NCBI GenBank assembly: GCA_017961575.1
Contig: JAGCXA010000053.1
Span: 26,347 to 90,346 of the forward strand
DNA from: Clostridia bacterium
GTDB taxonomy: Bacteria > Bacillota > Clostridia > Oscillospirales > CAG-272
Reading direction: 5' to 3'
Length of the DNA: 64,000 nt
Below, piece by piece: positions 12,208 to 25,391 of this stretch (positions are counted from its first letter, which is position 1; every line of letters starts with the position of its first letter). Below the pieces are notes generated by a model. That model made no database searches. It was not told the origin of the DNA and worked only from the letters and a program-made list of their open reading frames with translations. The position numbers and the translations under genes are program-made.

Positions 12208-15200
12208 ATGGATCTGACCAAAGACCTCGCGCCGGCGAGCGGCGCGGGACGGAAGGAATGGACCGGGGCGCAGCGGGAAGCGATCGAAACGCGCGACAAG
12301 ACCCTGCTCGTCTCGGCGGCGGCGGGGTCGGGCAAAACGACGACGCTGACCGAGCGCGTGATCCGAAGTCTGACCGACCCCTCCGCCCCCTGCGACGTTT
12401 CGCGGCTGGTGATCGTCACCTTCACCGTCGCGGCGGCGAACGACCTGAAATCGAAACTGTCCGCCGCCCTGTCCGACGCGATCCGCGAGCGCCCGGGCGA
12501 CCGCCGTCTCCCCGAGCAACTTCTTCTGCTCCCCGACGCCGACATCGGCACGATCGACAGTTTCTGCCGCCGACTCGTCACCGAATTCTCGGATCGCGCC
12601 GGGCTCTCCCCGAGTTACCGCGTCTCGGATCCCGCGGAGGAAAAACATCTGCTCCGCAGCGTTCTGAACCCCTATATCGACCGTCTTTTCGCGGGAGAAG
12701 AGCCCTCGGTCGCGACGGCGGACGAGTTCTGCGACTTCGTGTCACACCTCGTCGAATCGCGCAACCAGGACGACCTTTCCGAGATCGTTCTGACGGTTCA
12801 CGAACAAGTGGAAAACGTCCCGGAAGGCGCCGACAAACTCGACGTTTTTGCCGGATATATCGAGGATGCTTGCAACCGCCCCCCTGAGGAAACGGTTTTC
12901 GGATCCGTCCTGCTCCGCCGCCTTGCCGAGCGTTGCCGCGACGCCGCCGCGCTTGCCGAAGAATGCCTGTCCGACCTTGCGGGCGAGCCCGACTCGGTGC
13001 GGGAAGAACTCGCGCCCCCGCTCTCGCGCGCCCTCTCCGCCGCGCGGGAACTGTCGACGCCCGGCGTGTCCTACGACGCCGCGCGCGCACTCGTTTTCGA
13101 GCTCGGAAAGAAGGAATCGTCCCCCCTCAACGCGAACTACCGCAAAAAGTTCGTAAAAGAGGCGTCCCCCGACTTCCTCAACCGCGCCAAAACCTTTCTC
13201 GTCTCCCTGCGGGACGATATGGAATCGACCTTTCTCCCGCTTTTTTCCGCGACGTCCGAAGAGTGGCAAGCCGAGGCGCGCGTTCACGCGCCGATCTCGG
13301 CGCTGCTCGCGCGTCTGATCCGGCGGTTCGGGGAACTCGTCGGAGAGGAAAAGAGAAAGCGGAACGTCGCCTCGTTTGCCGACGTGGAGCGCGCGGCGCT
13401 TCGCGTTCTCGTCGCCCCCGACGGCACGAAGACCGATATTGCGCGGGAGGTTTCGTCGCGCTACGACGCCGTGTTCGTCGACGAGTATCAGGACGTCAAC
13501 CCGATCCAGCACGCGATCTTCGAGGCGATCTCGAACGAGCGCAACCGCTTTCTCGTCGGCGACGTCAAGCAGAGCATCTACTCGTTTCGGCGGGCGGACC
13601 CCTCCGTCTTCATTCGTCTGAAACGGGAGTTCCCCGCACTTGACGAAGCGAGCTCGTCCCCCGCCGCCACGATCTTTCTTTCGGACAACTTCCGCTGCGA
13701 CAAGCCGGTGATCGACTTCGTGAACGGCGTTTTCGACGCGCTCTTCGGAGCGGCGGGCGATTCGATCGGCTACATTCCCGCCGACCGTCTCGGCTTCGCC
13801 AAAAAGCCCGCCTCCTGTCTTCCGACGCCGGTCAAGCCCGTCGTGCGGATGTTCAAGAAAGCCGAACCCGACGAGAACGGCACGCTCCCGCCCGACGACG
13901 AGGAATGCGCGTGGGTCGCCGACGAGATCGTCCGGCTGACCAAAACCGGGCTTCGCCCCGACGGTTCGCCGATCAAGCCCGAAGACGTCGCCATCCTGCT
14001 CCGCGTCGCCGACGGGAAAGCCGCCGCGTTCCGCACGGCGCTGGTCCGCCGCGGGATCCCCGCGTCGGTCGAGACCAACGAAAACTTCTTCGATTCCCCC
14101 GAGATCCGCCTGGCGCTCTGCCTTCTCAACGCGGTGGACAACCCCCGCCGCGACGTTCCGCTCGTCGGACTTCTCCGCTCGCCGCTCTACGATTTTTCGC
14201 CCGATCTCTTGGTTCGGATCCGGCGCGAGGGATCAATCCCCGACGAGCCCTTCTACGACGCTCTGACCGAGTTCCGCGAGAATCATCCCGATTTCGCGCC
14301 CGTCGCCCGTTTCCTCGACCAACTCGCGGCGTTCCGGCGCGCGGCGGAGGGGATGCCGGTCGACCGCCTGATCTTAAAACTCTTTACCGAAACCGGGCTG
14401 TTCCCGATCGGCGGGGCGGCGAACCGGGCGGGGCGCGAAAAACTCCTCCTTTTCTATCAATACGCCCGCGCGTTCGAGGCGACCTCGTTCCGGGGGCTCT
14501 ACCGCTTCATCGCCTACCTGAACGACCTTGAAACCGACGGACAGAAACTCAGTTTGCAGCCCCCGGCGAACGCGGCGGGCGTCCGCATTATGACGATCCA
14601 CCACTCGAAGGGGCTGGAATTCCCGGTCGTGTTCGTGTCGCGCGCCCTGAACGGAAAAGGCGGCAGGAACACGCTGACGCAGGACGGCAACGTCTCGTAC
14701 AACCCGCTTTTCGGGCTGACGTCGAAGGTACACGACGAAACCGGGCTCGCGCGGATCGACACCCCCTTCCGCCAGATCGCCGACCGCGAATCGGCGATCC
14801 TCGGGCGCGAGGAAGAGTTGCGCGTGCTCTACGTCGCCCTGACGCGGGCGCGCGAACGGCTCTACGTAACCGGGCTTCTCCCCGGCCGCGCGACGGTGAA
14901 GAACAAACGCGCGCGCTACCGCGACGCGCTGCCGCTCTCGCGCACCGAAGTCCTCGGGGAAAAGACATTCTTCGACTGGATCGTGCGCGCGCTCGGCGAA
15001 GAGACGCCGCTCGCCGAGATCGTCTTCCCGCCCTCCGAGGACGAAGAGTCCGCGTCGCCCGCCCCCGCGGTCGCATCCGTGGCGGAGGAAACCGAACGCG
15101 CCGTCATCCGCGACGAAAACGGTCGCGTCCTCTCGGACGAGGAGGCGGAACGCATCCTGACCGAACGCTTTTCCTTCCGCTACGCCTTCCCGTGGCTCCG

Positions 15201-15894
15201 GACGGTGCCGGGCAAACTCTCGGTCTCGGTCCTCTCTCCCGTCGTGCTCGACGGAGCCGACGACGGCGCGACGGTTTACACCCCGCGCAAAGCCGAGGAA
15301 GACGCCCCGCTTCCGCGCTTCCTTTCGGGCGAAAGCCGCTCCGACGCCCCCGCCCTGCGCGGGACGGCTACGCACGAGTTTTTGCAATTCTGCGACCTCG
15401 CCTCGGTCCGCGAAAACGGCGCGGAGACGGAGTTGAAGCGCCTGATCGAGCGGGGGTTCTTAACAAAAGAAGCCCTCGATCTCGTGAACCTCGCCGAACT
15501 CGACCTGTTCCGCGACTCTTCTCTTGTGGACGAAATGCTTTCCGCGTCTTGGATGCGGCGCGAGCTCCGCTTCAATATGATGCTCCCCGCGTCGACCTTC
15601 ACGACGGACGCCGAACGGGCGGAAAAACTGAAAAACCACCCGATCCTGGTACAGGGCGTGATGGACTGCGTGTATGAAACCGAGGACGGCAAACTCGTCC
15701 TCCTCGACTACAAGACCGACCGGCTTCCGGGCGGCGTCAACGCAAGCGACCGCGCGGTCGCCGCGTTTACCGACCGACACCGCGACCAGCTCCGGTATTA
15801 CTCGATCGCCGTCGAACGCATCTTCGGACGGGCGCCCGACCGGGTCCTGCTCTATCCGCTCTGTCTCGGGCGACCGATCGCGGTCGCGCTTTGA
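12208..15894 (+). CDS. addA: AddA-type helicase/nuclease (UvrD helicase plus C-terminal PD-(D/E)XK nuclease)
   Basis: SAAAGSGKT, DEYQD, VGDVKQSIYSFRRA, MTIHHSKGLEFP, YVALTRA; nuclease QGVMD..LLDYKTD..QLRYY. Confidence 0.9.
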   Translation: MDLTKDLAPASGAGRKEWTGAQREAIETRDKTLLVSAAAGSGKTTTLTERVIRSLTDPSAPCDVSRLVIVTFTVAAANDLKSKLSAALSDAIRERPGDRRLPEQLLLLPDADIGTIDSFCRRLVTEFSDRAGLSPSYRVSDPAEEKHLLRSVLNPYIDRLFAGEEPSVATADEFCDFVSHLVESRNQDDLSEIVLTVHEQVENVPEGADKLDVFAGYIEDACNRPPEETVFGSVLLRRLAERCRDAAALAEECLSDLAGEPDSVREELAPPLSRALSAARELSTPGVSYDAARALVFELGKKESSPLNANYRKKFVKEASPDFLNRAKTFLVSLRDDMESTFLPLFSATSEEWQAEARVHAPISALLARLIRRFGELVGEEKRKRNVASFADVERAALRVLVAPDGTKTDIAREVSSRYDAVFVDEYQDVNPIQHAIFEAISNERNRFLVGDVKQSIYSFRRADPSVFIRLKREFPALDEASSSPAATIFLSDNFRCDKPVIDFVNGVFDALFGAAGDSIGYIPADRLGFAKKPASCLPTPVKPVVRMFKKAEPDENGTLPPDDEECAWVADEIVRLTKTGLRPDGSPIKPEDVAILLRVADGKAAAFRTALVRRGIPASVETNENFFDSPEIRLALCLLNAVDNPRRDVPLVGLLRSPLYDFSPDLLVRIRREGSIPDEPFYDALTEFRENHPDFAPVARFLDQLAAFRRAAEGMPVDRLILKLFTETGLFPIGGAANRAGREKLLLFYQYARAFEATSFRGLYRFIAYLNDLETDGQKLSLQPPANAAGVRIMTIHHSKGLEFPVVFVSRALNGKGGRNTLTQDGNVSYNPLFGLTSKVHDETGLARIDTPFRQIADRESAILGREEELRVLYVALTRARERLYVTGLLPGRATVKNKRARYRDALPLSRTEVLGEKTFFDWIVRALGEETPLAEIVFPPSEDEESASPAPAVASVAEETERAVIRDENGRVLSDEEAERILTERFSFRYAFPWLRTVPGKLSVSVLSPVVLDGADDGATVYTPRKAEEDAPLPRFLSGESRSDAPALRGTATHEFLQFCDLASVRENGAETELKRLIERGFLTKEALDLVNLAELDLFRDSSLVDEMLSASWMRRELRFNMMLPASTFTTDAERAEKLKNHPILVQGVMDCVYETEDGKLVLLDYKTDRLPGGVNASDRAVAAFTDRHRDQLRYYSIAVERIFGRAPDRVLLYPLCLGRPIAVAL

Positions 15895-15959
15895 TCCCCT
15901 CTCTCCTCTCACTCCCCTGTTCAACCCCGCTCCCCGACGGAGCGCGTCCCCGGCGAACG

Positions 15960-15996
15960 GCAAGACGGGCAGATCTGCCCGTCTTGCTCTTTTTTT
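15960..15996 (+). terminator. Intrinsic terminator after addA
   Basis: gcaagacgggcag-at-ctgcccgtcttgc followed by a T run. Confidence 0.8.
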
Positions 15997-16172
15997 GTCC
16001 GCGCCCCGCTTTTGCGGGCGGCGCATCTTTAACGGGGCGCTGTCGCCGCCGCTTTGAAACGGAGCTCCCCGCACGCAACCGCCGCTTTCCGCCGGCGTTT
16101 GGTCGAGTTGCACATATCTGCACTGAAATTTTTGTTTATTGCGCCGTTTTTTAGCCAATTCGATACTATGTG

Positions 16173-16201
16173 TTGCATTTTGGTGTTCAATCGTGTAGAA
16201 T
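16173..16201 (+). promoter_or_regulatory. SigA-like promoter of the surface-protein locus
   Basis: TTGCAT-17bp-TAGAAT. Confidence 0.55.
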
Positions 16202-16286
16202 AGAGACAAGGGAAGAGTGATCCTGACGGCGATGCTCCGCTGCGGATCCGCCCGTTCACACCGCTACAATAAAAAGGAGAAAAGTT

Positions 16287-17636
16287 ATGAAGAGATTGTC
16301 TGTTACCCTCGCGTTTGTCCTGTGTCTCGTCCTTTGCGCTTTCGCGTTCGCGTCCTGCGGACCGAAGAAACCCGCGAGCACCACGGGCGACGCCACCGCT
16401 CCGGCGACCACGGCGGGGGAGACCGCGTGCGAACACGAATGGGGCGAGTTCGTCATCGACGAGGATCCGTCCTGCACGAAGGTCGGCTCGAAGTCCAAGT
16501 ACTGCACCAAGTGCGACGCGCAGGATCCCGCCTCGATCACCGAGATTCCGATGATCGCGCACACTCCGGGGGAGGATTACGAGGTCGACACGCCGGCAAC
16601 CTGCTCCGACGTCGGCTACGAGTCCATTCATTGCACCGTTTGTAAGCAGCCGATCGCCGACACCGTTCGTCAAATAGACATCGACGAAAACGCGCACGTC
16701 GTTGCCGACGACGGGTGGACGATGGATAAGCTCACGCTTCTGAATCAGACCGGCAACAAGACCGGGACCTGCACGGCTTGCGGAGCAAGCGTCGTTCGTC
16801 CGATCGAGTACGAGGGTCTTTCCGTTTGGAACGCCAACGACAAAACGTCCGGCAACAAGGTCGACAAACGTACCTATCAGTCCATCCGCGGCGAGGACCA
16901 TTTCTACCCCGACGAAACGAACAACGGTCTCGGCAACGATCTTCTGATCGAGTTCTCGATCCTTTATAACGAGACTTTGGCGTCCCTGTCCGGCGCGACG
17001 TTCGACATCACGGTCGGCGACGGCTCCGACTTCGTCAATCTCAAATTGGCGGCGAACGCCAACGCTCGGTACGGCACCGTCGTCGGCGGGTTCTCCGCCC
17101 GCGACAGAAACGACGGCAAGGGTGCGGTTCTGTCCACTCCGACCGCCGCCGAGATCGAGGCGGATCCGAACGCGAAATATCCGAGCATCGGCGATTACGG
17201 CTGGCACCGCGTCGGCGTCCGCATCCATCAGGAAGCGGCGATCGTCGAGGACGCCGTGGTCTACGCCTTCACCGGCGAGGTCTACCTTGACGGCGACCTG
17301 ATCCTCGCGTTCGACCTGTCGAAATGGGCGAAGGACAACAAGGGCGCGCTACTCTACACCGCGACGATCGAAAACGACGAGTTGGCGTACTCCGACAACG
17401 ACGCGTCGAACGCCTGGGGCGAGTTCGGCATCTACGGCTTCTACGGTGGAAGCGACGTTTATCTCGGCATCGCCGATGCCTCGATGACCTGCGGCAAAGC
17501 GTTCGTACAGAACGTGGAGTCGGTCGCGACGCCCGACCCGGCAACCTTTACCTTCGACGATAAGGACACCCCGGACGACACGACGGACGACGTCACCTGC
17601 CCCGCGGCGATCTACTACAAGTTCGTCGAGGAATAA
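16287..17636 (+). CDS. Lipoprotein with 3 CxxC repeats and one ConA/LamG-like beta-sandwich domain (domain X)
   Basis: Signal peptide ending in lipobox FAS-C; Thr-rich linker; H..TC..G....CxxC repeats; GWHRVGVRI..EVYLDG motif; AAGGAG RBS. Confidence 0.75.
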   Translation: MKRLSVTLAFVLCLVLCAFAFASCGPKKPASTTGDATAPATTAGETACEHEWGEFVIDEDPSCTKVGSKSKYCTKCDAQDPASITEIPMIAHTPGEDYEVDTPATCSDVGYESIHCTVCKQPIADTVRQIDIDENAHVVADDGWTMDKLTLLNQTGNKTGTCTACGASVVRPIEYEGLSVWNANDKTSGNKVDKRTYQSIRGEDHFYPDETNNGLGNDLLIEFSILYNETLASLSGATFDITVGDGSDFVNLKLAANANARYGTVVGGFSARDRNDGKGAVLSTPTAAEIEADPNAKYPSIGDYGWHRVGVRIHQEAAIVEDAVVYAFTGEVYLDGDLILAFDLSKWAKDNKGALLYTATIENDELAYSDNDASNAWGEFGIYGFYGGSDVYLGIADASMTCGKAFVQNVESVATPDPATFTFDDKDTPDDTTDDVTCPAAIYYKFVEE

Positions 17637-17813: not shown

Positions 17814-20462
17814 ATGAAGAACAGAACCAAAGCGCGGGGCTTGTCGCTCCTCCTGATCTTCGCGATGCTGGTCGTCGCACTTGCCGTGCTCCTGCCGACC
17901 GTCGCGTCGGCTGCCCCTGCCGAGATCGACGATTTCGGGGTCCAGACGCTCACGGCGCTTGATCTTCCGGGCGACGCCGACACCGATCTGCGCTTCGTCT
18001 TTACGGTCGGTTCACTCGCCTACGACGAGGTCGGCTTCGTCTTCTCGAAAACGAACGCCGCCCCGACGGTCGGCGGAGACGCCTGCGTCAAGAAAGAAAC
18101 GACCGTCGTTTACAGTTCGATCATGGCGGGCGGAACGCCGCAGTCTGCGGGCGACGGCCGCTACTGGGTCGCGGTCAAACTGACCGAGATCCCGCACGAA
18201 TACTTTGACGGCGCGCTCTACGTCCGTCCCTACGTCGACGACGGGGATGTCCGGTACGGCGCCGCGATGAACACGACCGTCTGCGCCGCCGCGGGACACA
18301 AGCACGCCCCGCAGCTCTTGCCGGGGCATTGTGACGGATGCGGCCTCGACGGCGTGAAGAGCGGGGAACCGTATATTCTGAACTCGAACCTCCCGATGGC
18401 GGGGCAGTACTGCGCCTACGGAGACCGCTTCATTGATTCGCGCCCGTATAAGAACATTTGCGGATCGGAGAAGTACTATCCCGACGAATCGAACGGCTAC
18501 AACGGAAACGATCTTCTGATCGAGTTCTCCATTCTCTATAACGAGAGTTTGGAAAACCTGACGGGCGGAACCTTTGATATTACGGTCGGCGACGTTTCCG
18601 ATTTTGTCAATTTGAAATTGGAAGCGAGTGCCAACGCGCGTTACGGTTCTGTCGTTGGCGGATTCTCTGCGCGTGACAGAGGCGACGGGAAGGGCGCGGT
18701 CCTGTCCACCCCGACCCCTGCCGAGATCGCGGCGGATCCGGACGCGAAATATCCGAGCATCGGCGCCTACGGTTGGCACCGCGTCGGCGTTCGCATCCAC
18801 GAAGAGGCGGACATCGTTAACGCCGCCGTCGCCTACACTTATGAAGGCGAGGTATATCTGGACGGCGAGTTGATTCTTGCGTTCGACCTGTCCAAATGGG
18901 CAAAGGCAACGCCGGCAATTCTGCTCTACACCGCGACAATCGAGAACGACGAACTCGTCTATGCCGCCAATACTTCGAACAACAGCAAGGGTTCGATCTC
19001 CGTCGATGGTTTTTACAACGTTTCGGACACCTATCTCGGAATTGCCGACGTGTTTATGACCTGCGGCACCGATTTCGTCCAGCAGGTTGTTCCGGTTGCC
19101 GATCCCGCCGCCGCGACGATTGAGGTCGAGGAGTCGGTCGAACTTTCCGCAAAGATGTGGTACACCGCGCCGCACGCGCACGTCCCGGCTGCGGAGTACA
19201 CGGTCGACCTCGCGCCGACCTGCACGACCCCCGGTTCCAAGTCCTATCATTGCACGATCTGCGGCGCGATCATCAACGAGACGATCACCGCGGTCGAACC
19301 GACGGGCGACGCCCACACCCCTGCGGCGGAATACACAATCGACACGCCGGCAACCTGCACCGCTCCCGGTTCGCGCTCCAAGCACTGCACGTTGTGCGGC
19401 GCGATCATTCCCGAAACGGTGGAACCGATCGCCATGATTGCCCACACCCCTGCCGACGACTACACGCTCGACGCGGTGCCGACCTGCGTAGCGGTCGGAT
19501 CCGAGTCCAAGCATTGCACCGTTTGCGGCGCTCCCGTCGCCGAAACGGCGCGTGACGTTGCCATCGATCCCGACGCGCATAACGTCGCCTCTTGGACGAC
19601 CACCGTCCAGCCGACGCTGCTCGCCGACGGCACGAAAACCGGCGAATGCACGCTCTGCCACAACCCGGTCGTCGAGGCGGTGGCGTACGGCGGACCGAGC
19701 ATCTACTACTCTAAAAACAAATCATCTGGAAACCAGCTCGACAAACGGCTTTATTCGGCGATCCGCGGCGAGGATCATTTTTACAACGGCAACGATCTTC
19801 TGATCGAGTTCTCAATTCTGTATAACGAGAGTTTGGAGAACCTGACAGGCGGGACCTTCGATATTACCGTCGGGGACGGCAGCGATTTCGTCAATTTGAA
19901 ATTGGAAGCGAGCGCAAACGCGCGTTACGGTTCTGTCGTCGGCGGTTTTTCCGCGCGCGACCGGAACGACGGGCTTGGTGCGATCCATTCCACCCCGACC
20001 CCTGCCGAGATCGCGGCGGATCCGACGGCAAAGTATCCGAGCATCGGCGCATACGGCTGGCATCGCGTCGGTATTCGTATCCACGAAGAGGCGGATATCG
20101 TTAACGACGCCGTCGCCTACACGTTCCAAAGCGAGGTATATCTGGATGGCGAGTTGATTCTTGCGTTTGATCTGTCGGATTGGGCACAGGCAAATCAAGG
20201 CGTTCTGCTCTACACCGCGACGATCGAGAACGATGAACTCGTCTATTCCGACAATGACGCGGCGAATGCTTGGGGCGAGATCGGGATCTACTCTTTCTAC
20301 ACCAAAAAGAAGGATATCTATCTTGTTCTTGCCGACGTGTATATGACCTGCGGTACCGATTTCGTCCAGGATGTCGAGGCGGTCGCCGCGCCTGTCGCTG
20401 CGTCGATCGAACTCGGCGGCAACAACTATCCGGCGGCGATCTACTACCGGTTCGCCGACTGA
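17814..20462 (+). CDS. Secreted modular protein: N-domain, domain X, 4 CxxC repeats, domain X
   Basis: Signal peptide (..VASA); two copies of the domain found in 16287-17636; N-terminal domain shared with 20708-23521; AAGGAG RBS. Confidence 0.8.
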   Translation: MKNRTKARGLSLLLIFAMLVVALAVLLPTVASAAPAEIDDFGVQTLTALDLPGDADTDLRFVFTVGSLAYDEVGFVFSKTNAAPTVGGDACVKKETTVVYSSIMAGGTPQSAGDGRYWVAVKLTEIPHEYFDGALYVRPYVDDGDVRYGAAMNTTVCAAAGHKHAPQLLPGHCDGCGLDGVKSGEPYILNSNLPMAGQYCAYGDRFIDSRPYKNICGSEKYYPDESNGYNGNDLLIEFSILYNESLENLTGGTFDITVGDVSDFVNLKLEASANARYGSVVGGFSARDRGDGKGAVLSTPTPAEIAADPDAKYPSIGAYGWHRVGVRIHEEADIVNAAVAYTYEGEVYLDGELILAFDLSKWAKATPAILLYTATIENDELVYAANTSNNSKGSISVDGFYNVSDTYLGIADVFMTCGTDFVQQVVPVADPAAATIEVEESVELSAKMWYTAPHAHVPAAEYTVDLAPTCTTPGSKSYHCTICGAIINETITAVEPTGDAHTPAAEYTIDTPATCTAPGSRSKHCTLCGAIIPETVEPIAMIAHTPADDYTLDAVPTCVAVGSESKHCTVCGAPVAETARDVAIDPDAHNVASWTTTVQPTLLADGTKTGECTLCHNPVVEAVAYGGPSIYYSKNKSSGNQLDKRLYSAIRGEDHFYNGNDLLIEFSILYNESLENLTGGTFDITVGDGSDFVNLKLEASANARYGSVVGGFSARDRNDGLGAIHSTPTPAEIAADPTAKYPSIGAYGWHRVGIRIHEEADIVNDAVAYTFQSEVYLDGELILAFDLSDWAQANQGVLLYTATIENDELVYSDNDAANAWGEIGIYSFYTKKKDIYLVLADVYMTCGTDFVQDVEAVAAPVAASIELGGNNYPAAIYYRFAD

Positions 20463-20479
20463 TTGAAAGGAGTTCCCAA

Positions 20480-20608
20480 ATGAACGAAAAGAAGGTTTAC
20501 GAACCCGCCGAGATCAAGGTCACGCCGCTCGGTCGGGATCTGCTCATCACCTCGGGCGGCTCGCTCGGGGAGAACGATTGGGACGAGTTCAGCTTCGGCG
20601 ATCTCTGA
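20480..20608 (+). CDS. 42-aa peptide MNEKKVYEPAEIKVTPLGRDLLITSGGSLGENDWDEFSFGDL
   Basis: Strong GAAAGGAG RBS 7 nt before ATG; GC-rich third codon positions; C-terminus similar to the tail of the next protein. Confidence 0.8.
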   Translation: MNEKKVYEPAEIKVTPLGRDLLITSGGSLGENDWDEFSFGDL

Positions 20609-20707
20609 TCCCCTGCGTCTCCCCCCACGCGGGGGAGGCGCGCGTAAAACCGCCGCGGAAACGCCGGGCGTCCGCCCGGCGTTTCTCTTGTAATAAAGGA
20701 GACGATT

Positions 20708-23521
20708 ATGCAGAACGCTGTCGTAAAACGGAGAGCGGCGCTGACCCTCGGGGTTTTCGCCGCGGTCCTCTCGCTTTTCTTCGTCCTGTTTTTCTTTCTG
20801 CGCGGCTCCGCCGAGCCCGCCCCCGCCGAGATCGAGGATTTCGGCTATCAGACCGTCGCGGGGGATTCGCTCGGTTCGGAGAGCACCTCTCTGCGCTTCC
20901 TCTTCACGGTCGGCACCCTCGATTATACCCGCGTCGGCTTCGTCTTCTCGAAGACGAATATCGACCCGACGGTCGGGGGCGACGGCTGTCATATCCATCA
21001 GACGACGACGGTACATACCGACGTTTACGCCAACGGGAACAAGATCACGGCGGACGACGGGCGCTATTGGGTCGCGGTCAAGGTGACCGGCGTCCCGCAG
21101 GCGTCGTTCGACGCGCCGATCTACGTCCGTCCGTTCGTCGAGGACGGCGCTGGCGTCCGCTACGGCGACCCGCACGCCATCTCGGCGGAGGGCGGGTTCT
21201 CGATCCCGACGCTGCAAACGCAGATCGCCTCGTTCACGAACTCGAATTTCGGGGGCGGGAGCGTTACGGCGAACCTCGGGAACGGGACAGGTTACAACGC
21301 CCTCGCGAAGAACCCGACGAGGGGACAGCATCCGCGCGTCCTCTTTACCGAAACCGACCTGCCGGGGATCCGGACGGCGTTCAAAAACGCCCCGCCCCAA
21401 CAATCCCAGAGTTACGACTCGGTTTCGACCAAATACGCGGCGGTCATCGCAAACCCGACCGACGGGAACCTGTCCGGCGGGTTTGATCCCGGCGTGCTGA
21501 ACGACATCCAACTGCTGGCGCTCGACTACCGGATGACGGGCAACCCCTATTCGGGGTATCTCGCGGTCTACGCGATCAAAAACGCCCTCAAAACGACGGG
21601 AAACTGGAAGTCGCAGGACGACTATACCCGGATGTACGGGATGGTGATGTACGACGCCGCCTGCGTCTACGACTGGTGCTACGACCTGTTGACGTCATCC
21701 GATAAACAGCAGATCGTCCTCGGCGTACAGAACAAGTGCTGTTCAAACGGTCGGATGGAGATCGGCTTCCCGCCGTCGGACGAGAACGCCGTCACGGGGC
21801 ACGGCGCGGAATTGCAGCTTCTGCGCGATTACCTCTCCTTCGCCATCGCGATCTACGACGAGTATCCCGGCTGGTGGAACTATATCGCCGACCGCTTTTA
21901 CGACGAGTACGTCCCGGTCAGAAACGAGTTCTACGAGGCGGGAATGTACCCGCAGGGAACCTCGCTCTACGTCCGGCTCCGCTTCGCCTCCGATCTGTAT
22001 TCCGCGTGGCTCGTCAAGACGGCGACCGGGGTTTTCCCCTACGCGAGCGAGGCGAATATGAAGCAGGTGATGCGCACCGTCTACTCCTACGAGCTGACCG
22101 TTTCGGGGCATAAGGGCTTCGCCTCGGGCGACGATCACACCGACGACTGGGATTTCATCGACTACGGGCGCAACGCGCTCCTTTCGTCCTACCTCTTCGA
22201 CGACGCCACGATGCGCGCGCTGCTCGCGCGGCACTATTGGAGCTATTCCTACTTCTACGACTCCTATTATTCCTTCGTCGCGAGCGTCCCCGAATACCTG
22301 ATCTGCTCCTCAACGAATATCACCCCCGCCGCCGACCGGCACGAGGGGATGCCCTTGATCCTCTATAACGGCGGCTGGCTCGGGCAGATCATCGCGCGGA
22401 ACAGTTGGAGCACCTCCGACGCGACGGCGATTCTGATGAAGATCGGGTGCCGCACGTCGGGCAACCACGACCACGCCGACGCGGGACAGTTCCAGATCTG
22501 GTATAAGGACGTGATGCTGGCGGGCGACACCGGTTCCTACGACGATTACGGCGACAGCCACCACCTGCGGTATCATCAGGCGACGGTCGCGCACAACAGC
22601 ATCCTGATCGACGGAGCAGGGCAGAAACAGCCCGGCGAGCCGGGCGGTTACGCGAACTGGCGGAGCGACGCCTACAAGACCGGGGAAGTGACCGGCGTTT
22701 CCTACGGATATAACGGATCGACCCCGACCTATGCCTATATCGCCGGGAACCTTCAACCCGCGTACAGTACGAAAGCCGATACCGTCAACCGTCGGATGCT
22801 GACCGTGTTCGACACCGACGACGAGAACGCGCCGGCGTTCTTCTTCGTGTTCGATCGGATCAAGGCGAAGAGCGGCAGTTACAAAAAGACCTTCCTGCTC
22901 CACGTTCCGACCGAACCGACGATTGAGGGCAACCGCGTCTCGGTCGTCTCGGGAGAGAGAAAACTCGTCCTGCAAAGCGTGCTCGGCGGCGACAGCATCA
23001 CGAAGATCGGCGGAACGGGACACAATTACGAAGTGAACGGCGTGCAGTATAACGCCGGAGACGACGGCTACTGGGGGCGCGTCGAGATCAGCCCGAACAC
23101 CGGGAATCTGACGAACAACCTCCTGAACGTGATGTACGTCTGCGACGGCGACAGCGACCCGAACCTCGCGGCGACGAGATTCTATTCTTCTGAGGTCGAG
23201 GGCGCCGTGATCGGCAATACCGCCGCGGTTTTCGTGAAGTCGTCGGAACGGCAGACGGCGAGTTTCACCTTCACCGCTCCGGGCGAGGGAACGCTGAACT
23301 ACTACGTTTCGGGCGTCGGCGAAGGGGACTGGAAGGTCCTGGTCGGCGGCAATATCGTCGGAAGCGCGCACGCGACGTCCGACGGCGGGTTCGTTTCGTT
23401 CGCGGCGCCCGCGGGCGCCGTCACGCTGATCCCTTATAACGGCGCCGGTCTTACCGCGGAAACACTTCTCGGCGACGGGGGTTGGAGCGAACTCGGCTTC
23501 GGCGAACTGCCGAACCCCTGA
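20708..23521 (+). CDS. Secreted/anchored heparinase II/III-family polysaccharide lyase (PL21-like) with shared N-domain
   Basis: HPRVLF, GHGAELQLLRDYLSFAIAIYDEYP, QGTSLY, NHDHADAGQFQIWYK and TVAHNSIL resemble heparinase II motifs; hydrophobic N-terminus. Confidence 0.8.
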   Translation: MQNAVVKRRAALTLGVFAAVLSLFFVLFFFLRGSAEPAPAEIEDFGYQTVAGDSLGSESTSLRFLFTVGTLDYTRVGFVFSKTNIDPTVGGDGCHIHQTTTVHTDVYANGNKITADDGRYWVAVKVTGVPQASFDAPIYVRPFVEDGAGVRYGDPHAISAEGGFSIPTLQTQIASFTNSNFGGGSVTANLGNGTGYNALAKNPTRGQHPRVLFTETDLPGIRTAFKNAPPQQSQSYDSVSTKYAAVIANPTDGNLSGGFDPGVLNDIQLLALDYRMTGNPYSGYLAVYAIKNALKTTGNWKSQDDYTRMYGMVMYDAACVYDWCYDLLTSSDKQQIVLGVQNKCCSNGRMEIGFPPSDENAVTGHGAELQLLRDYLSFAIAIYDEYPGWWNYIADRFYDEYVPVRNEFYEAGMYPQGTSLYVRLRFASDLYSAWLVKTATGVFPYASEANMKQVMRTVYSYELTVSGHKGFASGDDHTDDWDFIDYGRNALLSSYLFDDATMRALLARHYWSYSYFYDSYYSFVASVPEYLICSSTNITPAADRHEGMPLILYNGGWLGQIIARNSWSTSDATAILMKIGCRTSGNHDHADAGQFQIWYKDVMLAGDTGSYDDYGDSHHLRYHQATVAHNSILIDGAGQKQPGEPGGYANWRSDAYKTGEVTGVSYGYNGSTPTYAYIAGNLQPAYSTKADTVNRRMLTVFDTDDENAPAFFFVFDRIKAKSGSYKKTFLLHVPTEPTIEGNRVSVVSGERKLVLQSVLGGDSITKIGGTGHNYEVNGVQYNAGDDGYWGRVEISPNTGNLTNNLLNVMYVCDGDSDPNLAATRFYSSEVEGAVIGNTAAVFVKSSERQTASFTFTAPGEGTLNYYVSGVGEGDWKVLVGGNIVGSAHATSDGGFVSFAAPAGAVTLIPYNGAGLTAETLLGDGGWSELGFGELPNP

Positions 23522-23630: not shown

Positions 23631-25391
23631 ATGAAAAAGTGTTTTCGGAACGGAAAGATCTTCTTTGTCGCGGGAAAAAACAAAGAGGACGTGATCTACG
23701 ACGTTTCGTCAAACGACCTGCACGTCACCTTCGACGGCAAAGGCGGGATCACGAACTATACGGTCGACAACCAGAGCGGAAACTGCGCCAAAAAGATTAT
23801 CTTGAACGTATTTGCCGACGGAAAAAAACTCGACGCCTTCTGCGACAAGCGGGTCGAACTTGCCGGACGAATGCAGAAGATCCTTCTGAAAGACGGCGCG
23901 GTCGGGATCAAGATCTGTCAGTTCGTCGCGCCGAACGAAAATGCGGTTTTCTACGAGATCACGGCAAACAAACCGGGCGACTACGAGTTCGTTCTGGATC
24001 TCACCCGTACCGAGAACGGGTTTCACTACGACACCGATGCAACGAACTGGTTTATTCACGAAAACAACTCGATTTACCTGCGCACGAAAAGAAGCGCGCG
24101 TCTCGTTCTCGTCTACGGCAGCTCGACCAGCTGCGTGAAACTGCTGCCCCGCTTTTCCGCGTTCAAAAAGCAGGTCGTCGACGAGTTCCGAAGCGTGAAG
24201 ATCCCCCCGTCCGCCAAAACCGAGAAAGAGCGGGCGCTCTACGTTTCAAGCGTCTTCTGCGCACTCGAAAACTACAAGGAGATCGGACTTTTCAAGGGCT
24301 TTTCCGCCGGCGCACACGTAGGCGCCCCCGTCCGGACGTATTTCCGGGACTCCTATTGGACGACGCTCTGTATGTATAAGAGCCGCCCCGACCTCATCCG
24401 CAATCAGATCCTCACGCTGTCTCGCGGCGTCAAGGAGACCGGCGATTGCCCCGCCTGCGTTACCTTCGAGTTCGACTCGCCAATGCGCTGTTTTTACGAC
24501 AGTCCGTGTTTCTTTGTGATGATGGTCTACGATTATATCAATCACGCCGGCGACCTTTCGATCCTCGACGAATCCGTGAACGGGAAAACGGTCTACGACT
24601 ACTGCTGTCTGACGCTCGACAAACTGTCGGAATACGAGGACAAGACGGGGCTTGTCGTCAAAGTCGGAAAGTACAACAAGCGCGACTGGGCGGACGAGAT
24701 CAACCGCACCGGCTGCGTCACCTACGTCGAACTGCTTTACGCCCGCGCGCTCTTCTGCCTTTCGCGGATCGCCGGAACGAGGGACAAAGCCCGCGCCCGT
24801 CGGTATCACGAAATGTACCTGCGGACGAAAAACGCGATCAACGCGCTGCTTTGGGACGATGAAAAAGGGTACTATATCAACTATCGGGACGGCGGCTTTG
24901 TCGAAGACAATCTGTCGGTCGATACGATCCTCGCGGTTCTGTTCGGAATCTCGGACAAAAAGCAGACCGAACGCCTGCTCGACAACGTCGCGAATCTGCT
25001 CGAAACGCGGAACAACCAAAGCCAGAAGGGTGGAGATTACGGCGTGATGAGCGTCTATCCCTTCTACCGGGGAGCAGACAAGTGTTTCCATCGCTCCGCG
25101 GAGGATTACGCGTGTCAGAACGGCGCGGCGTGGCCGTACTGGTCCGCGCTCGTCGCCTACGCGCAGATGATGAACGGCAGGGATTACACCTACGCGCTGA
25201 CCTCTTCGTTCGGTTGGAACGTCAAACACGGAAACTATACGCCGGTCGAATACTATTCTCCGCTCGGCGTCGGCTCTTCGTGCCTGCACGCGAGAAGCAG
25301 CGACGCCGCCTGGGTCTACGACTGGCAGGACCGCGATTTCTTCCGCGAAAACGAAACCGTTTGGGAGAAGGCTCCGGTCGCCCGGCGCTGA
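23631..25391 (+). CDS. (alpha/alpha)6 glycoside hydrolase, amylo-alpha-1,6-glucosidase/GDE_C-like
   Basis: YFRDSYW, DWADE, LWDDEKGYY and NGAAWPYW motifs; no signal peptide. Confidence 0.7.
   Translation: MKKCFRNGKIFFVAGKNKEDVIYDVSSNDLHVTFDGKGGITNYTVDNQSGNCAKKIILNVFADGKKLDAFCDKRVELAGRMQKILLKDGAVGIKICQFVAPNENAVFYEITANKPGDYEFVLDLTRTENGFHYDTDATNWFIHENNSIYLRTKRSARLVLVYGSSTSCVKLLPRFSAFKKQVVDEFRSVKIPPSAKTEKERALYVSSVFCALENYKEIGLFKGFSAGAHVGAPVRTYFRDSYWTTLCMYKSRPDLIRNQILTLSRGVKETGDCPACVTFEFDSPMRCFYDSPCFFVMMVYDYINHAGDLSILDESVNGKTVYDYCCLTLDKLSEYEDKTGLVVKVGKYNKRDWADEINRTGCVTYVELLYARALFCLSRIAGTRDKARARRYHEMYLRTKNAINALLWDDEKGYYINYRDGGFVEDNLSVDTILAVLFGISDKKQTERLLDNVANLLETRNNQSQKGGDYGVMSVYPFYRGADKCFHRSAEDYACQNGAAWPYWSALVAYAQMMNGRDYTYALTSSFGWNVKHGNYTPVEYYSPLGVGSSCLHARSSDAAWVYDWQDRDFFRENETVWEKAPVARR

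Follow-up and report, generated by a model that had tools for sequence, protein, structure and literature searches.

The known systems closest to the locus studied here are those of the linear polyphosphorylated peptides (LPPs), such as the lppA-K-B-S-D-N cluster of Paenibacillus alginolyticus (Nat Commun, 20 May 2026; PMC13381572). According to that account, LPP precursors are 35 to 200 amino acids (aa) long; their leader is conserved (logo YxxPxVLxHQxIxFETxxS), and their C-termini vary greatly. LppK adds several phosphates to Ser3 of the core, and LppS, with the catalytic residues S29, H68 and D93, cuts after Thr-1, only when the leader is presented by LppB. The clusters are defined by an NTP-transferase together with an exporter that resembles MsbA and are often found in capsular polysaccharide loci of Bacilli; in their Discussion, the authors describe the biological role of these peptides as unknown (PMC13381572). 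Here a 64,000-nucleotide (nt) stretch of contig JAGCXA010000053.1 of a rumen member of the Clostridia (the window) is compared with these systems, in particular a gene for a 42-aa peptide and the gene for a 937-aa lyase that follows it. The genome from which the window comes (G000; 1.875 Mb, 67 contigs) is 94% complete and has 1514 called proteins (544,770 residues). We favor, with some reserve, the reading in which the 42-aa open reading frame (ORF) encodes the precursor of an LPP-like pathway for a peptide that is synthesized ribosomally and modified post-translationally (RiPP), and in which the motif of its core is also supplied as the tail of the lyase. The initial annotation of this DNA had considered that the motif could be an undescribed sorting, docking or modification signal, with the peptide as adaptor, competitor or co-substrate; as far as the LPP family is characterized in PMC13381572, the peptide and its enzymes match that family.

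The peptide gene and the motif shared with lyase tails

As judged by its conservation, the 42-aa ORF is a genuine, multicopy peptide gene. The genome has seven copies, six of them close and one, on contig C41, divergent; an eighth copy, on contig C30, is more divergent still. The ratio of nonsynonymous to synonymous polymorphism (pN/pS) is 0.22–0.53 in 21 of 21 pairs among seven copies, conservation in the close family extends over both halves of the peptide, and a GGAG-type ribosome-binding site is present 5' of 7 of 7 copies checked (the C30 copy was not among these). In a large protein collection, 256 relatives at E ≤ 0.01 are found among 669 candidates, and an exhaustive search of cluster representatives gives 57 matches at E ≤ 0.001. 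The best 120 of the relatives are all 41–50 aa long; a name is given for few of them, and these are 'hypothetical' proteins of Clostridia metagenome-assembled genomes (MAGs). The ORF is short and is matched by no Pfam or NCBIfam family, as would be expected if it were untranslated and its likeness to the lyase tail had arisen by chance; the 256 relatives, the 57 clusters, the pN/pS values, the ribosome-binding sites and the matrix result described below contradict this explanation, whose probability is close to negligible.

The distant members of the superfamily retain the N-terminal 25 residues, with the consensus M-x-K-K-x-Y-E-x-P-E-I-E-I-I-x-L-x-x-x-D-V-I-T-T-S-G, and the positions Y7, I12, L17, L22 and T24 are kept superfamily-wide. 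The window copy reads Y-E-P-A and I-T-S-G-G where the superfamily has Y-E-x-P-E-I and D-V-I-T-T-S-G. The C-terminus that follows is short, acidic, Trp-containing and clade-variable, with just 9–10 residues beyond the leader in many members. RiPP precursors show this pattern, in which the N-terminus is constant and the C-terminus variable, and the sequence supports the assignment of the N-terminal half as a Y-x-x-P-type leader, in agreement with the initial annotation. The cleavage site proposed there, between Ser25 and the following Gly, has become uncertain: by analogy with LppA, we infer that the leader would be cut after the conserved Thr24, with Ser25 as the likeliest phosphate acceptor.

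By its Pfam matches, which include both defining domains (Hepar_II_III_C, 44.7 bits with a cut-off of 24, and HepII_C, 32 bits with a cut-off of 26.1), the 937-aa protein is a heparinase II/III-like polysaccharide lyase. It also matches the HepB equivalog of NCBIfam with 331 bits, under the cut-off of 600. Residues 29–42 of the peptide align without gaps with residues 921–934 of this lyase, the identities being 7/14 in protein and 29/42 in DNA; both ORFs, the alignment and the visible DNA similarity are exactly as first described. The count of 29 is the best (mean 13.2, maximum 29) among the 924 windows of 42 bases that the lyase gene has in frame.

A position matrix free of lyase sequences was made from core 14-mers (69 unique ones, provided by 119 of the 120 peptide relatives listed) and scanned over the 1514 proteins. 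Ranks 1–5 in the proteome are five lyase C-termini, at 37.2, 26.8, 20.4, 17.1 (the window lyase) and 16.0 bits; the next best score is 10.6, and the maximum in the reversed proteome is 12.5 bits. All five matches end 1–3 residues from the stop codon. Clearly, the match between core and tail exceeds chance. Two profile searches add little to this: a HMMER profile of the core, which was too narrow and is superseded by the ungapped matrix, passed a single tail (on C36, E 7.8e-6), and the profile search for longer tailed proteins found two peptides with mis-called starts and is uninformative on tails. The strict motif pattern suggested initially has two occurrences in a six-frame translation of the genome, both in the window.

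At E ≤ 1e-79 to the window lyase, 16 lyase-like ORFs or fragments are counted in the genome, an unusual expansion for 1.9 Mb, with 8–15 matches in each of the related MAGs. The C-terminus is kept in 14 of them, five having an extension of ~25 residues that bears the motif and nine ending at ...T-L-T-P-x. Of the best 120 homologues that the lyase C-terminal region has in the database, 42 carry the tail at 12.5 matrix bits or more (39 by a simple regular expression). The tail is also found in 10 of 30 lyase ends, drawn from 55 matches in five related rumen MAGs (0, 1, 4, 4 and 1 per six). These counts contradict the possibility, raised in the initial annotation, that homologous lyases are tailless and that the motif occurs nowhere else, and they bear out its observation that an acidic W/F motif is present both in a leader-bearing peptide and in an enzyme tail. 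A tail variant without Trp, ...D-V-D-D-Y-D-A-I-G-F-D-E-L-P-N-P, occurs below the matrix threshold in P0181, P0182 and locus L038, which after P0180 are the closest relatives of the window lyase.

In the full-length model of the lyase (mean predicted local distance difference test (pLDDT) 86.9), the tail has a pLDDT of ~60 and is therefore probably a flexible linear motif outside any domain. C-terminal sorting signals (LPXTG, PEP-CTERM and similar) consist of a signature motif, a hydrophobic helix and a basic cluster. The 27-residue lyase tail is unlike these, having neither a hydrophobic stretch nor any Lys or Arg, and the NCBIfam search gives no sorting-domain match on the lyase.

It is also conceivable, though unlikely, that the common motif is an evolutionary trace: the 3' end of a lyase gene and a precursor core would once have exchanged DNA, after which the tail would have been inherited in one clade, with no common partner today. 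The two genes are neighbors, 29 of 42 bases are identical, and only the lyases most closely related to that of the window have the tail, as a single ancestral event would give. Against this, the motif positions (L, E, W, F/V/I, F/Y and L) are kept in both families (42 tails, 119 cores), the flanks being divergent, and the motif remains 1–3 residues from the C-terminus. The agreement between core and tail DNA is lowest at the third codon position (8/14), and therefore there is no sign of a recent transfer.

The enzyme cassette and its co-occurrence with the peptides

The window itself has no RiPP enzymes, as the initial annotation had noted, and the genome has exactly one match to PqqD, the RiPP recognition element (RRE), on contig C41, outside the window. 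The RRE gene (C41, 32109-32375) lies between the genes of a 237-aa P-loop protein and of a 161-aa peptidase-like protein, and these three genes form a cassette (C41, 31361-32852) that is bounded by its own promoter-like site and by the tRNA genes following it. The 88-aa RRE matches Pfam PqqD with 67.3 bits. When its profile is compared with solved structures, it matches TbiB1 (1.6e-6), PbaB1 (9x90; 1.1e-5), LppB (9x8z; 3.5e-4) and TfuB1 (the range extending to 5.2e-4), such that its best solved relatives are the RREs of lasso and LPP systems, LppB not being the closest. By these matches, the genome has a discrete PqqD-type RRE of the lasso/LPP group, as LPP clusters do.

The 237-aa protein has the P-loop G-T-G-K-S-T and matches the NCBIfam families ScmC (3.4e-9) and HprK_rel_A (1e-3), both under the cut-off; in a protein atlas, it falls in ScmC-family clusters at 0.98. 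The 161-aa protein matches the archaeal signal peptidase I family of NCBIfam (sigpep_I_arch, E 2.7e-4, under the cut-off), and Ser28, His67 and the Gly-Asp-Asn of positions 81–83 are invariant in 8 of 8 orthologues. The RRE and peptidase-like genes are adjacent (L005:18909-19172 and 19168-19650). These features point, with weak homology, to a signal peptidase I-like leader peptidase encoded beside the discrete RRE, as in LPP clusters.

The complex of the RRE with the window peptide was predicted with a score of 0.38, the best of three controls having 0.00. Among solved complexes, 58 of 80 attain the mark for this score, and among mismatched pairs 2 of 110; the scores at 0.60 or under include 7 of the 80 solved complexes and both passing mismatches. 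Between runs, the contacts agree by at least 83%, and the pLDDT of the partner is at least 52. Because RRE–leader complexes have already been solved, the pass may reflect model memory or likeness only, and it is a weak indication that the RRE binds the leader of the window peptide.

To examine the association of the peptides with the cassette, 201 genomes were sampled from the order; 39 of them have the peptide superfamily and 69 the kinase-like gene. This gene is found in 36 of the 39 superfamily-positive genomes versus 33 of the 162 negative ones, and some of the latter 33 matches resemble ordinary HPr kinase in length and coverage; as related genomes are not independent, no statistic is given. 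In nine genomes (G000, G038, G043, G050, G063, G106, G160, G171 and G201), a peptide gene and the kinase-like gene share the strand, the former lying 0.1–6.2 kb upstream; in G000 it is the divergent C41 copy, 3.5 kb upstream of the three-gene cassette. The five rumen MAGs with window-type peptides have one kinase-like gene each, 80–84% identical, and 8, 5, 10, 10 and 5 peptide matches, with a peptide gene and the kinase-like gene on one contig in four of the five. The composition of kinase-like, RRE and peptidase-like genes recurs in the loci inspected.

Another idea is that the peptide is a lasso precursor, or a double-glycine leader peptide (a bacteriocin or pheromone) that is exported by a peptidase-ABC transporter. 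Its leader is Y-x-x-P-like with the Thr close to a Gly and Gly-Gly after the leader, an Asp is at position 8 from the first Gly, and the RRE is closest to lasso B1 proteins. Nevertheless, neither Transglut_core3 (PF13471, the transglutaminase-like lasso B2 protease) nor Peptidase_C39 (PF03412) has a match in the 94%-complete genome, the 9–10 residues after the leader in many members are too short for a lasso, and Gly-Gly is not conserved outside the close family. There is also no Asn-synthetase-like cyclase in the cassette (Asn_synthase was not searched genome-wide). Either identity is very improbable.

By analogy with the characterized LPP system, residues 1–24 of the precursor would be bound as the leader by the single discrete PqqD/RRE protein, the kinase would phosphorylate a Ser near the start of the core, and, with the leader presented by the RRE, the peptidase would cut after the conserved Thr. 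The product would be an acidic peptide of ~18 residues with a free C-terminus, which presumably leaves the cell.

Genomic setting and the putative partner of the motif

On the + strand, the order in the window is an 882-aa ORF, the 42-codon ORF, two hairpins and the 937-aa ORF (Table 1). The peptide start is 17 nt from the stop codon of the 882-aa gene. The frame of the peptide differs from that of the upstream ORF (starts at 20480 and 17814), and in five of seven copies the open frame begins merely 4–6 codons 5' of the ATG; therefore a fusion of the peptide to the upstream protein by frameshift or read-through is rejected. The hairpin region has a folding energy of -55.4 kcal/mol (z -3.9), equalled by 0 of 200 shuffles, and a scan for consensus terminators and promoters between the peptide and lyase genes flagged nothing, the hairpins included.

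Table 1. Positions of the features discussed in the text.
Feature	Position	Strand	Basis or description
Secreted 882-aa protein gene	17814-20462	+	Signal peptide, Ig-like N-domain (E 4.8e-38), four Cys-rich repeats, duplicated domain
Ribosome-binding site AAAGGAG	20466-20472	+	7 nt 5' of the peptide ATG
Peptide gene, 42 codons and stop, LppA-like precursor (putative)	20480-20608	+	ORF call, family searches, pN/pS
Peptide leader, residues 1-24, ending at invariant Thr24	20480-20551	+	Superfamily conservation; boundary placed by analogy with LppA
Peptide core, residues 25-42	20552-20605	+	Motif L-G-E-x-x-W-x-x-F-x-F-x-x-L at 20564-20605
Two G+C-rich hairpins 3' of the peptide stop	20612-20690	+	Second hairpin followed by UCUCUUGU, terminator-like
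Heparinase II/III-like lyase, 937 aa, N-terminal hydrophobic helix	20708-23521	+	Pfam Hepar_II_III_C, HepII_C
Lyase Ig-like beta-sandwich N-domain, residues 37-175	20816-21232	+	Common to the upstream 882-aa protein
Lyase C-terminal extension, residues 911-937	23438-23518	+	Core-like motif at 23468-23509
410-510-aa lipoprotein family	Window 16287-17636; L001:6810-8342; L003:17943-19340; L004:6368-7798; L021; L022		

The lyase and the 882-aa protein have in common an N-terminal domain (the N-domain) of ~130 residues, which is found in 15 proteins of the genome. Its model is an immunoglobulin (Ig)-like beta-sandwich (pLDDT 80.4), and the fold search with Foldseek gave generic Ig-like matches only, with no specific solved relative and no named family (best E 6.9e-4, TM 0.39). 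Four of the 15 proteins are tailed lyases, and four have a peptide gene 18–33 nt downstream. A fifth such protein is split over contigs C43 and C34, with a peptide gene following its C-terminal piece; the contig ends (C43, 15550-16603, and C34, 70289-70675) encode overlapping identical protein sequence, and therefore these contigs probably join, linking this N-domain protein to the C34 peptide gene. For two lyases, that of the window and a truncated one on C30, the peptide gene is just upstream, and five of the 15 have neither tail nor peptide gene. The C30 peptide gene (2095-2223, - strand), the eighth and divergent member, has a different core, ending ...G-F-G-E-I-K-F-F, and lies ~360 nt upstream of the truncated lyase gene, an order also seen in the window. 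N-domain and tail coincide in 38 of the 120 lyase homologues and are both missing from 76; two carry the N-domain alone, and four, mostly short or partial, the tail alone. The N-domain occurs in four of the 201 genomes of the order, and all four also carry the peptide and the cassette.

The genomes of loci L032, L033 and L035, of one other genus, are the only others in the sample with the N-domain. In these loci, small acidic low-complexity lipoproteins are encoded directly upstream of the kinase-like gene (L032:198-575, L033:1064-1492, L035:1028-1492); the last residues are D-W-x-P-W-F in two of them and Q-F-G-T-M-F in the other, a further case of an exported protein, encoded next to the cassette, with an acidic aromatic C-terminus. 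The gene that follows the kinase-like gene in one genome encodes a 328-aa multi-pass membrane protein (L029:461-1447, - strand) with E-E-x-x-x-R and H-x-x-x-N motifs, which we take to be reminiscent of CPBP-type intramembrane proteases.

Fourteen peptide loci were mapped, seven from this genome and seven from MAGs. In 13 of them, a large same-strand ORF with a signal- or lipoprotein-like N-terminus precedes the peptide gene, with a gap of 17–39 nt in 10 loci and of 146 nt in two; in the exceptional locus, the peptide gene is 116 nt after a 572-aa ORF. The eight precursors of the genome are distributed over eight loci, seven of which are away from the cassette enzymes. The junction between the upstream gene and the peptide start, with the stop TGA-(T/C)CGAAAGGAG (window 20460-20479), is kept in six of seven copies, not in the C41 copy, and from this conserved junction it looks as if gene end and peptide gene were duplicated together.

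It is possible, but quite improbable, that this arrangement reflects a small protein of the cytoplasm with an action on the secreted product of the upstream gene, e.g. as a translationally coupled export escort or regulator, and that this small protein is not processed by the RRE cassette. The short distance to the preceding stop codon in 10 of the 14 loci and the conserved junction fit such a protein, as do the lack of an assigned exporter and the presence of just one of the eight copies near the cassette. The co-occurrence of superfamily and cassette across genomes and their repeated adjacency argue against it; furthermore, the leader resembles RRE-binding leaders, and its constancy beside a variable core follows the RiPP pattern.

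Other observations concern the neighboring genes. The 882-aa protein has no Pfam family above the cut-off; its four Cys-rich repeats are of ~45 residues each and its two near-identical domain copies of ~250 residues, a domain type that is also the C-terminal end of other proteins preceding peptide genes (e.g. ...A-I-Y-Y-R-F-A-D). Lipoproteins of 410–510 aa, which start with M-K-K-L-x-V-x-L-A-L-x-L-C-L, a lipobox Cys and then G-P-K-K-P-A-S-T-T, recur within 1–3 kb of peptide genes. A 586-aa protein of the GH94/MGH1-like glycoside hydrolase type is encoded 3' of the lyase (23631-25391), and two ORFs of 581–583 aa in the C60 peptide locus (L006:4837-6588 and 14669-16414) resemble it, as judged by their terminal sequences.

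In the favored reading, an LPP-like precursor whose core motif is also a lyase tail, one recognition motif would have two supplies, in cis on N-domain enzymes and in trans from precursor genes, the latter 17–39 nt downstream of the genes of other N-domain proteins. The W/F motif may then be read by a common partner, for which the Ig-like N-domain would be the first candidate. A more far-reaching proposal, which we consider speculative and unlikely in its entirety, is that LPP-type peptides are docking tags: the core would be phosphorylated at its N-terminal Ser, freed of its leader and exported, its phosphate end would be fixed to surface polysaccharide, the N-domain would bind the W/F motif, left with a free C-terminus, and lyases with both N-domain and tail would chain head to tail.

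Several observations weigh against these interpretations. Concerning the enzymes, the 237-aa kinase-like protein has no match in the local copy of Pfam, the peptidase-like family matches Pfam S24/S26 in 0 of 8 members, and its best match among solved signal peptidases has merely E 0.015. Neither an NTP-transferase (not searched genome-wide) nor an MsbA-like exporter lies beside the cassette; the six ABC_membrane genes of the genome are on other contigs only, and none is assigned. The kinase-like match is missing in 3 of the 39 peptide-positive genomes, G105 (75% complete), G151 and G165. Concerning the peptide, core position 3 is not a Ser, so that Ser25 is left as the candidate acceptor, and the leader is unlike the published LPP logo, with an Ala in the window copy where Pro is expected. 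Concerning the tail, its tie to the peptide consists of sequence and gene placement only, the full-length model gives it no confident placement, and the lyase tails have no leader and are therefore not ordinary substrates of the cassette. The association of N-domain and tail may mark one clade.

If the reading holds, the genome can be regarded as a natural experiment in which one core motif is delivered by the RiPP route and is also hard-wired on secreted polysaccharide lyases. The sharing of the motif with lyase tails may give the first clue to the purpose of LPPs and recasts their function as a binding question, core peptide versus N-domain, with or without phosphate.

Comparison with known systems

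The likeness to the LPP systems, as these are described in PMC13381572, concerns several properties. By sequence, the C41 cassette would have the same three core activities, the kinase being putative, and Ser28 and His67 of its 161-aa protein have the spacing of S29 and H68 of LppS. There is no lasso cyclase, the precursors are at least 35 aa long, with a leader of the Y-x-x-P type, for which Thr is the presumed last residue, and a C-terminus that varies, and the loci are rich in polysaccharide-related genes. Differences are also seen. The cassette is of three genes, without an adjoining NTP-transferase or MsbA-like pump, its kinase-like protein belongs to the ScmC family, and the leader has another logo, with a Tyr–Thr spacing of 17 here and of 15 in LPPs. 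The eight precursors are scattered, seven being unlinked to the enzymes. The host comes from the rumen and belongs to the Clostridia, a class that the text of PMC13381572 does not mention, and the core motif recurs on the tails of secreted enzymes, a feature of which we found no mention in that account. As the three core activities are probably the same, but the transferase and pump do not adjoin, the kinase-like protein is of the ScmC family and the logo is another one, the system is best regarded as an LPP-like variant and not as a proven member. Relative to what is set out in PMC13381572, its novel elements are the three-gene cluster, the precursors scattered beside genes of N-domain secreted proteins, and the core motif as an enzyme tail. 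The assignment would extend the LPP-like family to uncultured rumen Clostridia, with 5–10 precursors per ~1.5–1.9-Mb genome, among genes of carbohydrate-active enzymes.

The paeninodin-type lasso clusters of Bacillota, as described in PMC7533575 and PMC13381572, have an RRE of the same superfamily, a leader with Y or W in a [Y/W]-x-x-P motif and an HprK-like tailoring kinase. Here, however, the B2 protease is not found genome-wide, the cassette has no cyclase, and for a lariat the cores are either too short or too variable. In the SynChlorMet systems (ScmC/ScmD; NCBIfam TIGR04249, TIGR04248), a ScmC-family protein likewise adjoins a PqqD-like protein; the scores obtained here are far under the equivalog cut-offs (36.5 versus 125 and 13.8 versus 100), and the cassette is without radical-SAM genes.

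In prochlorosin-type systems, one enzyme set serves many unlinked precursors with a common leader. Chemistry and leader family are different there, and the precursors studied here are tied to particular neighbor genes. Cohesin–dockerin systems also rely on a C-terminal appendage on secreted polysaccharide-degrading enzymes, in that case a calcium-binding fold of 60–70 residues. Here too an enzyme C-terminal appendage co-occurs with a beta-sandwich domain, but the tail is a linear motif of 14 residues. If the motif is a docking signal, it would represent a new way for Gram-positive degraders of fibre and glycans to organize their enzymes. If the whole docking-tag proposal should prove correct, the system would be a minimal surface-assembly system, functionally comparable to cohesin–dockerin, and would provide a first function for LPPs.

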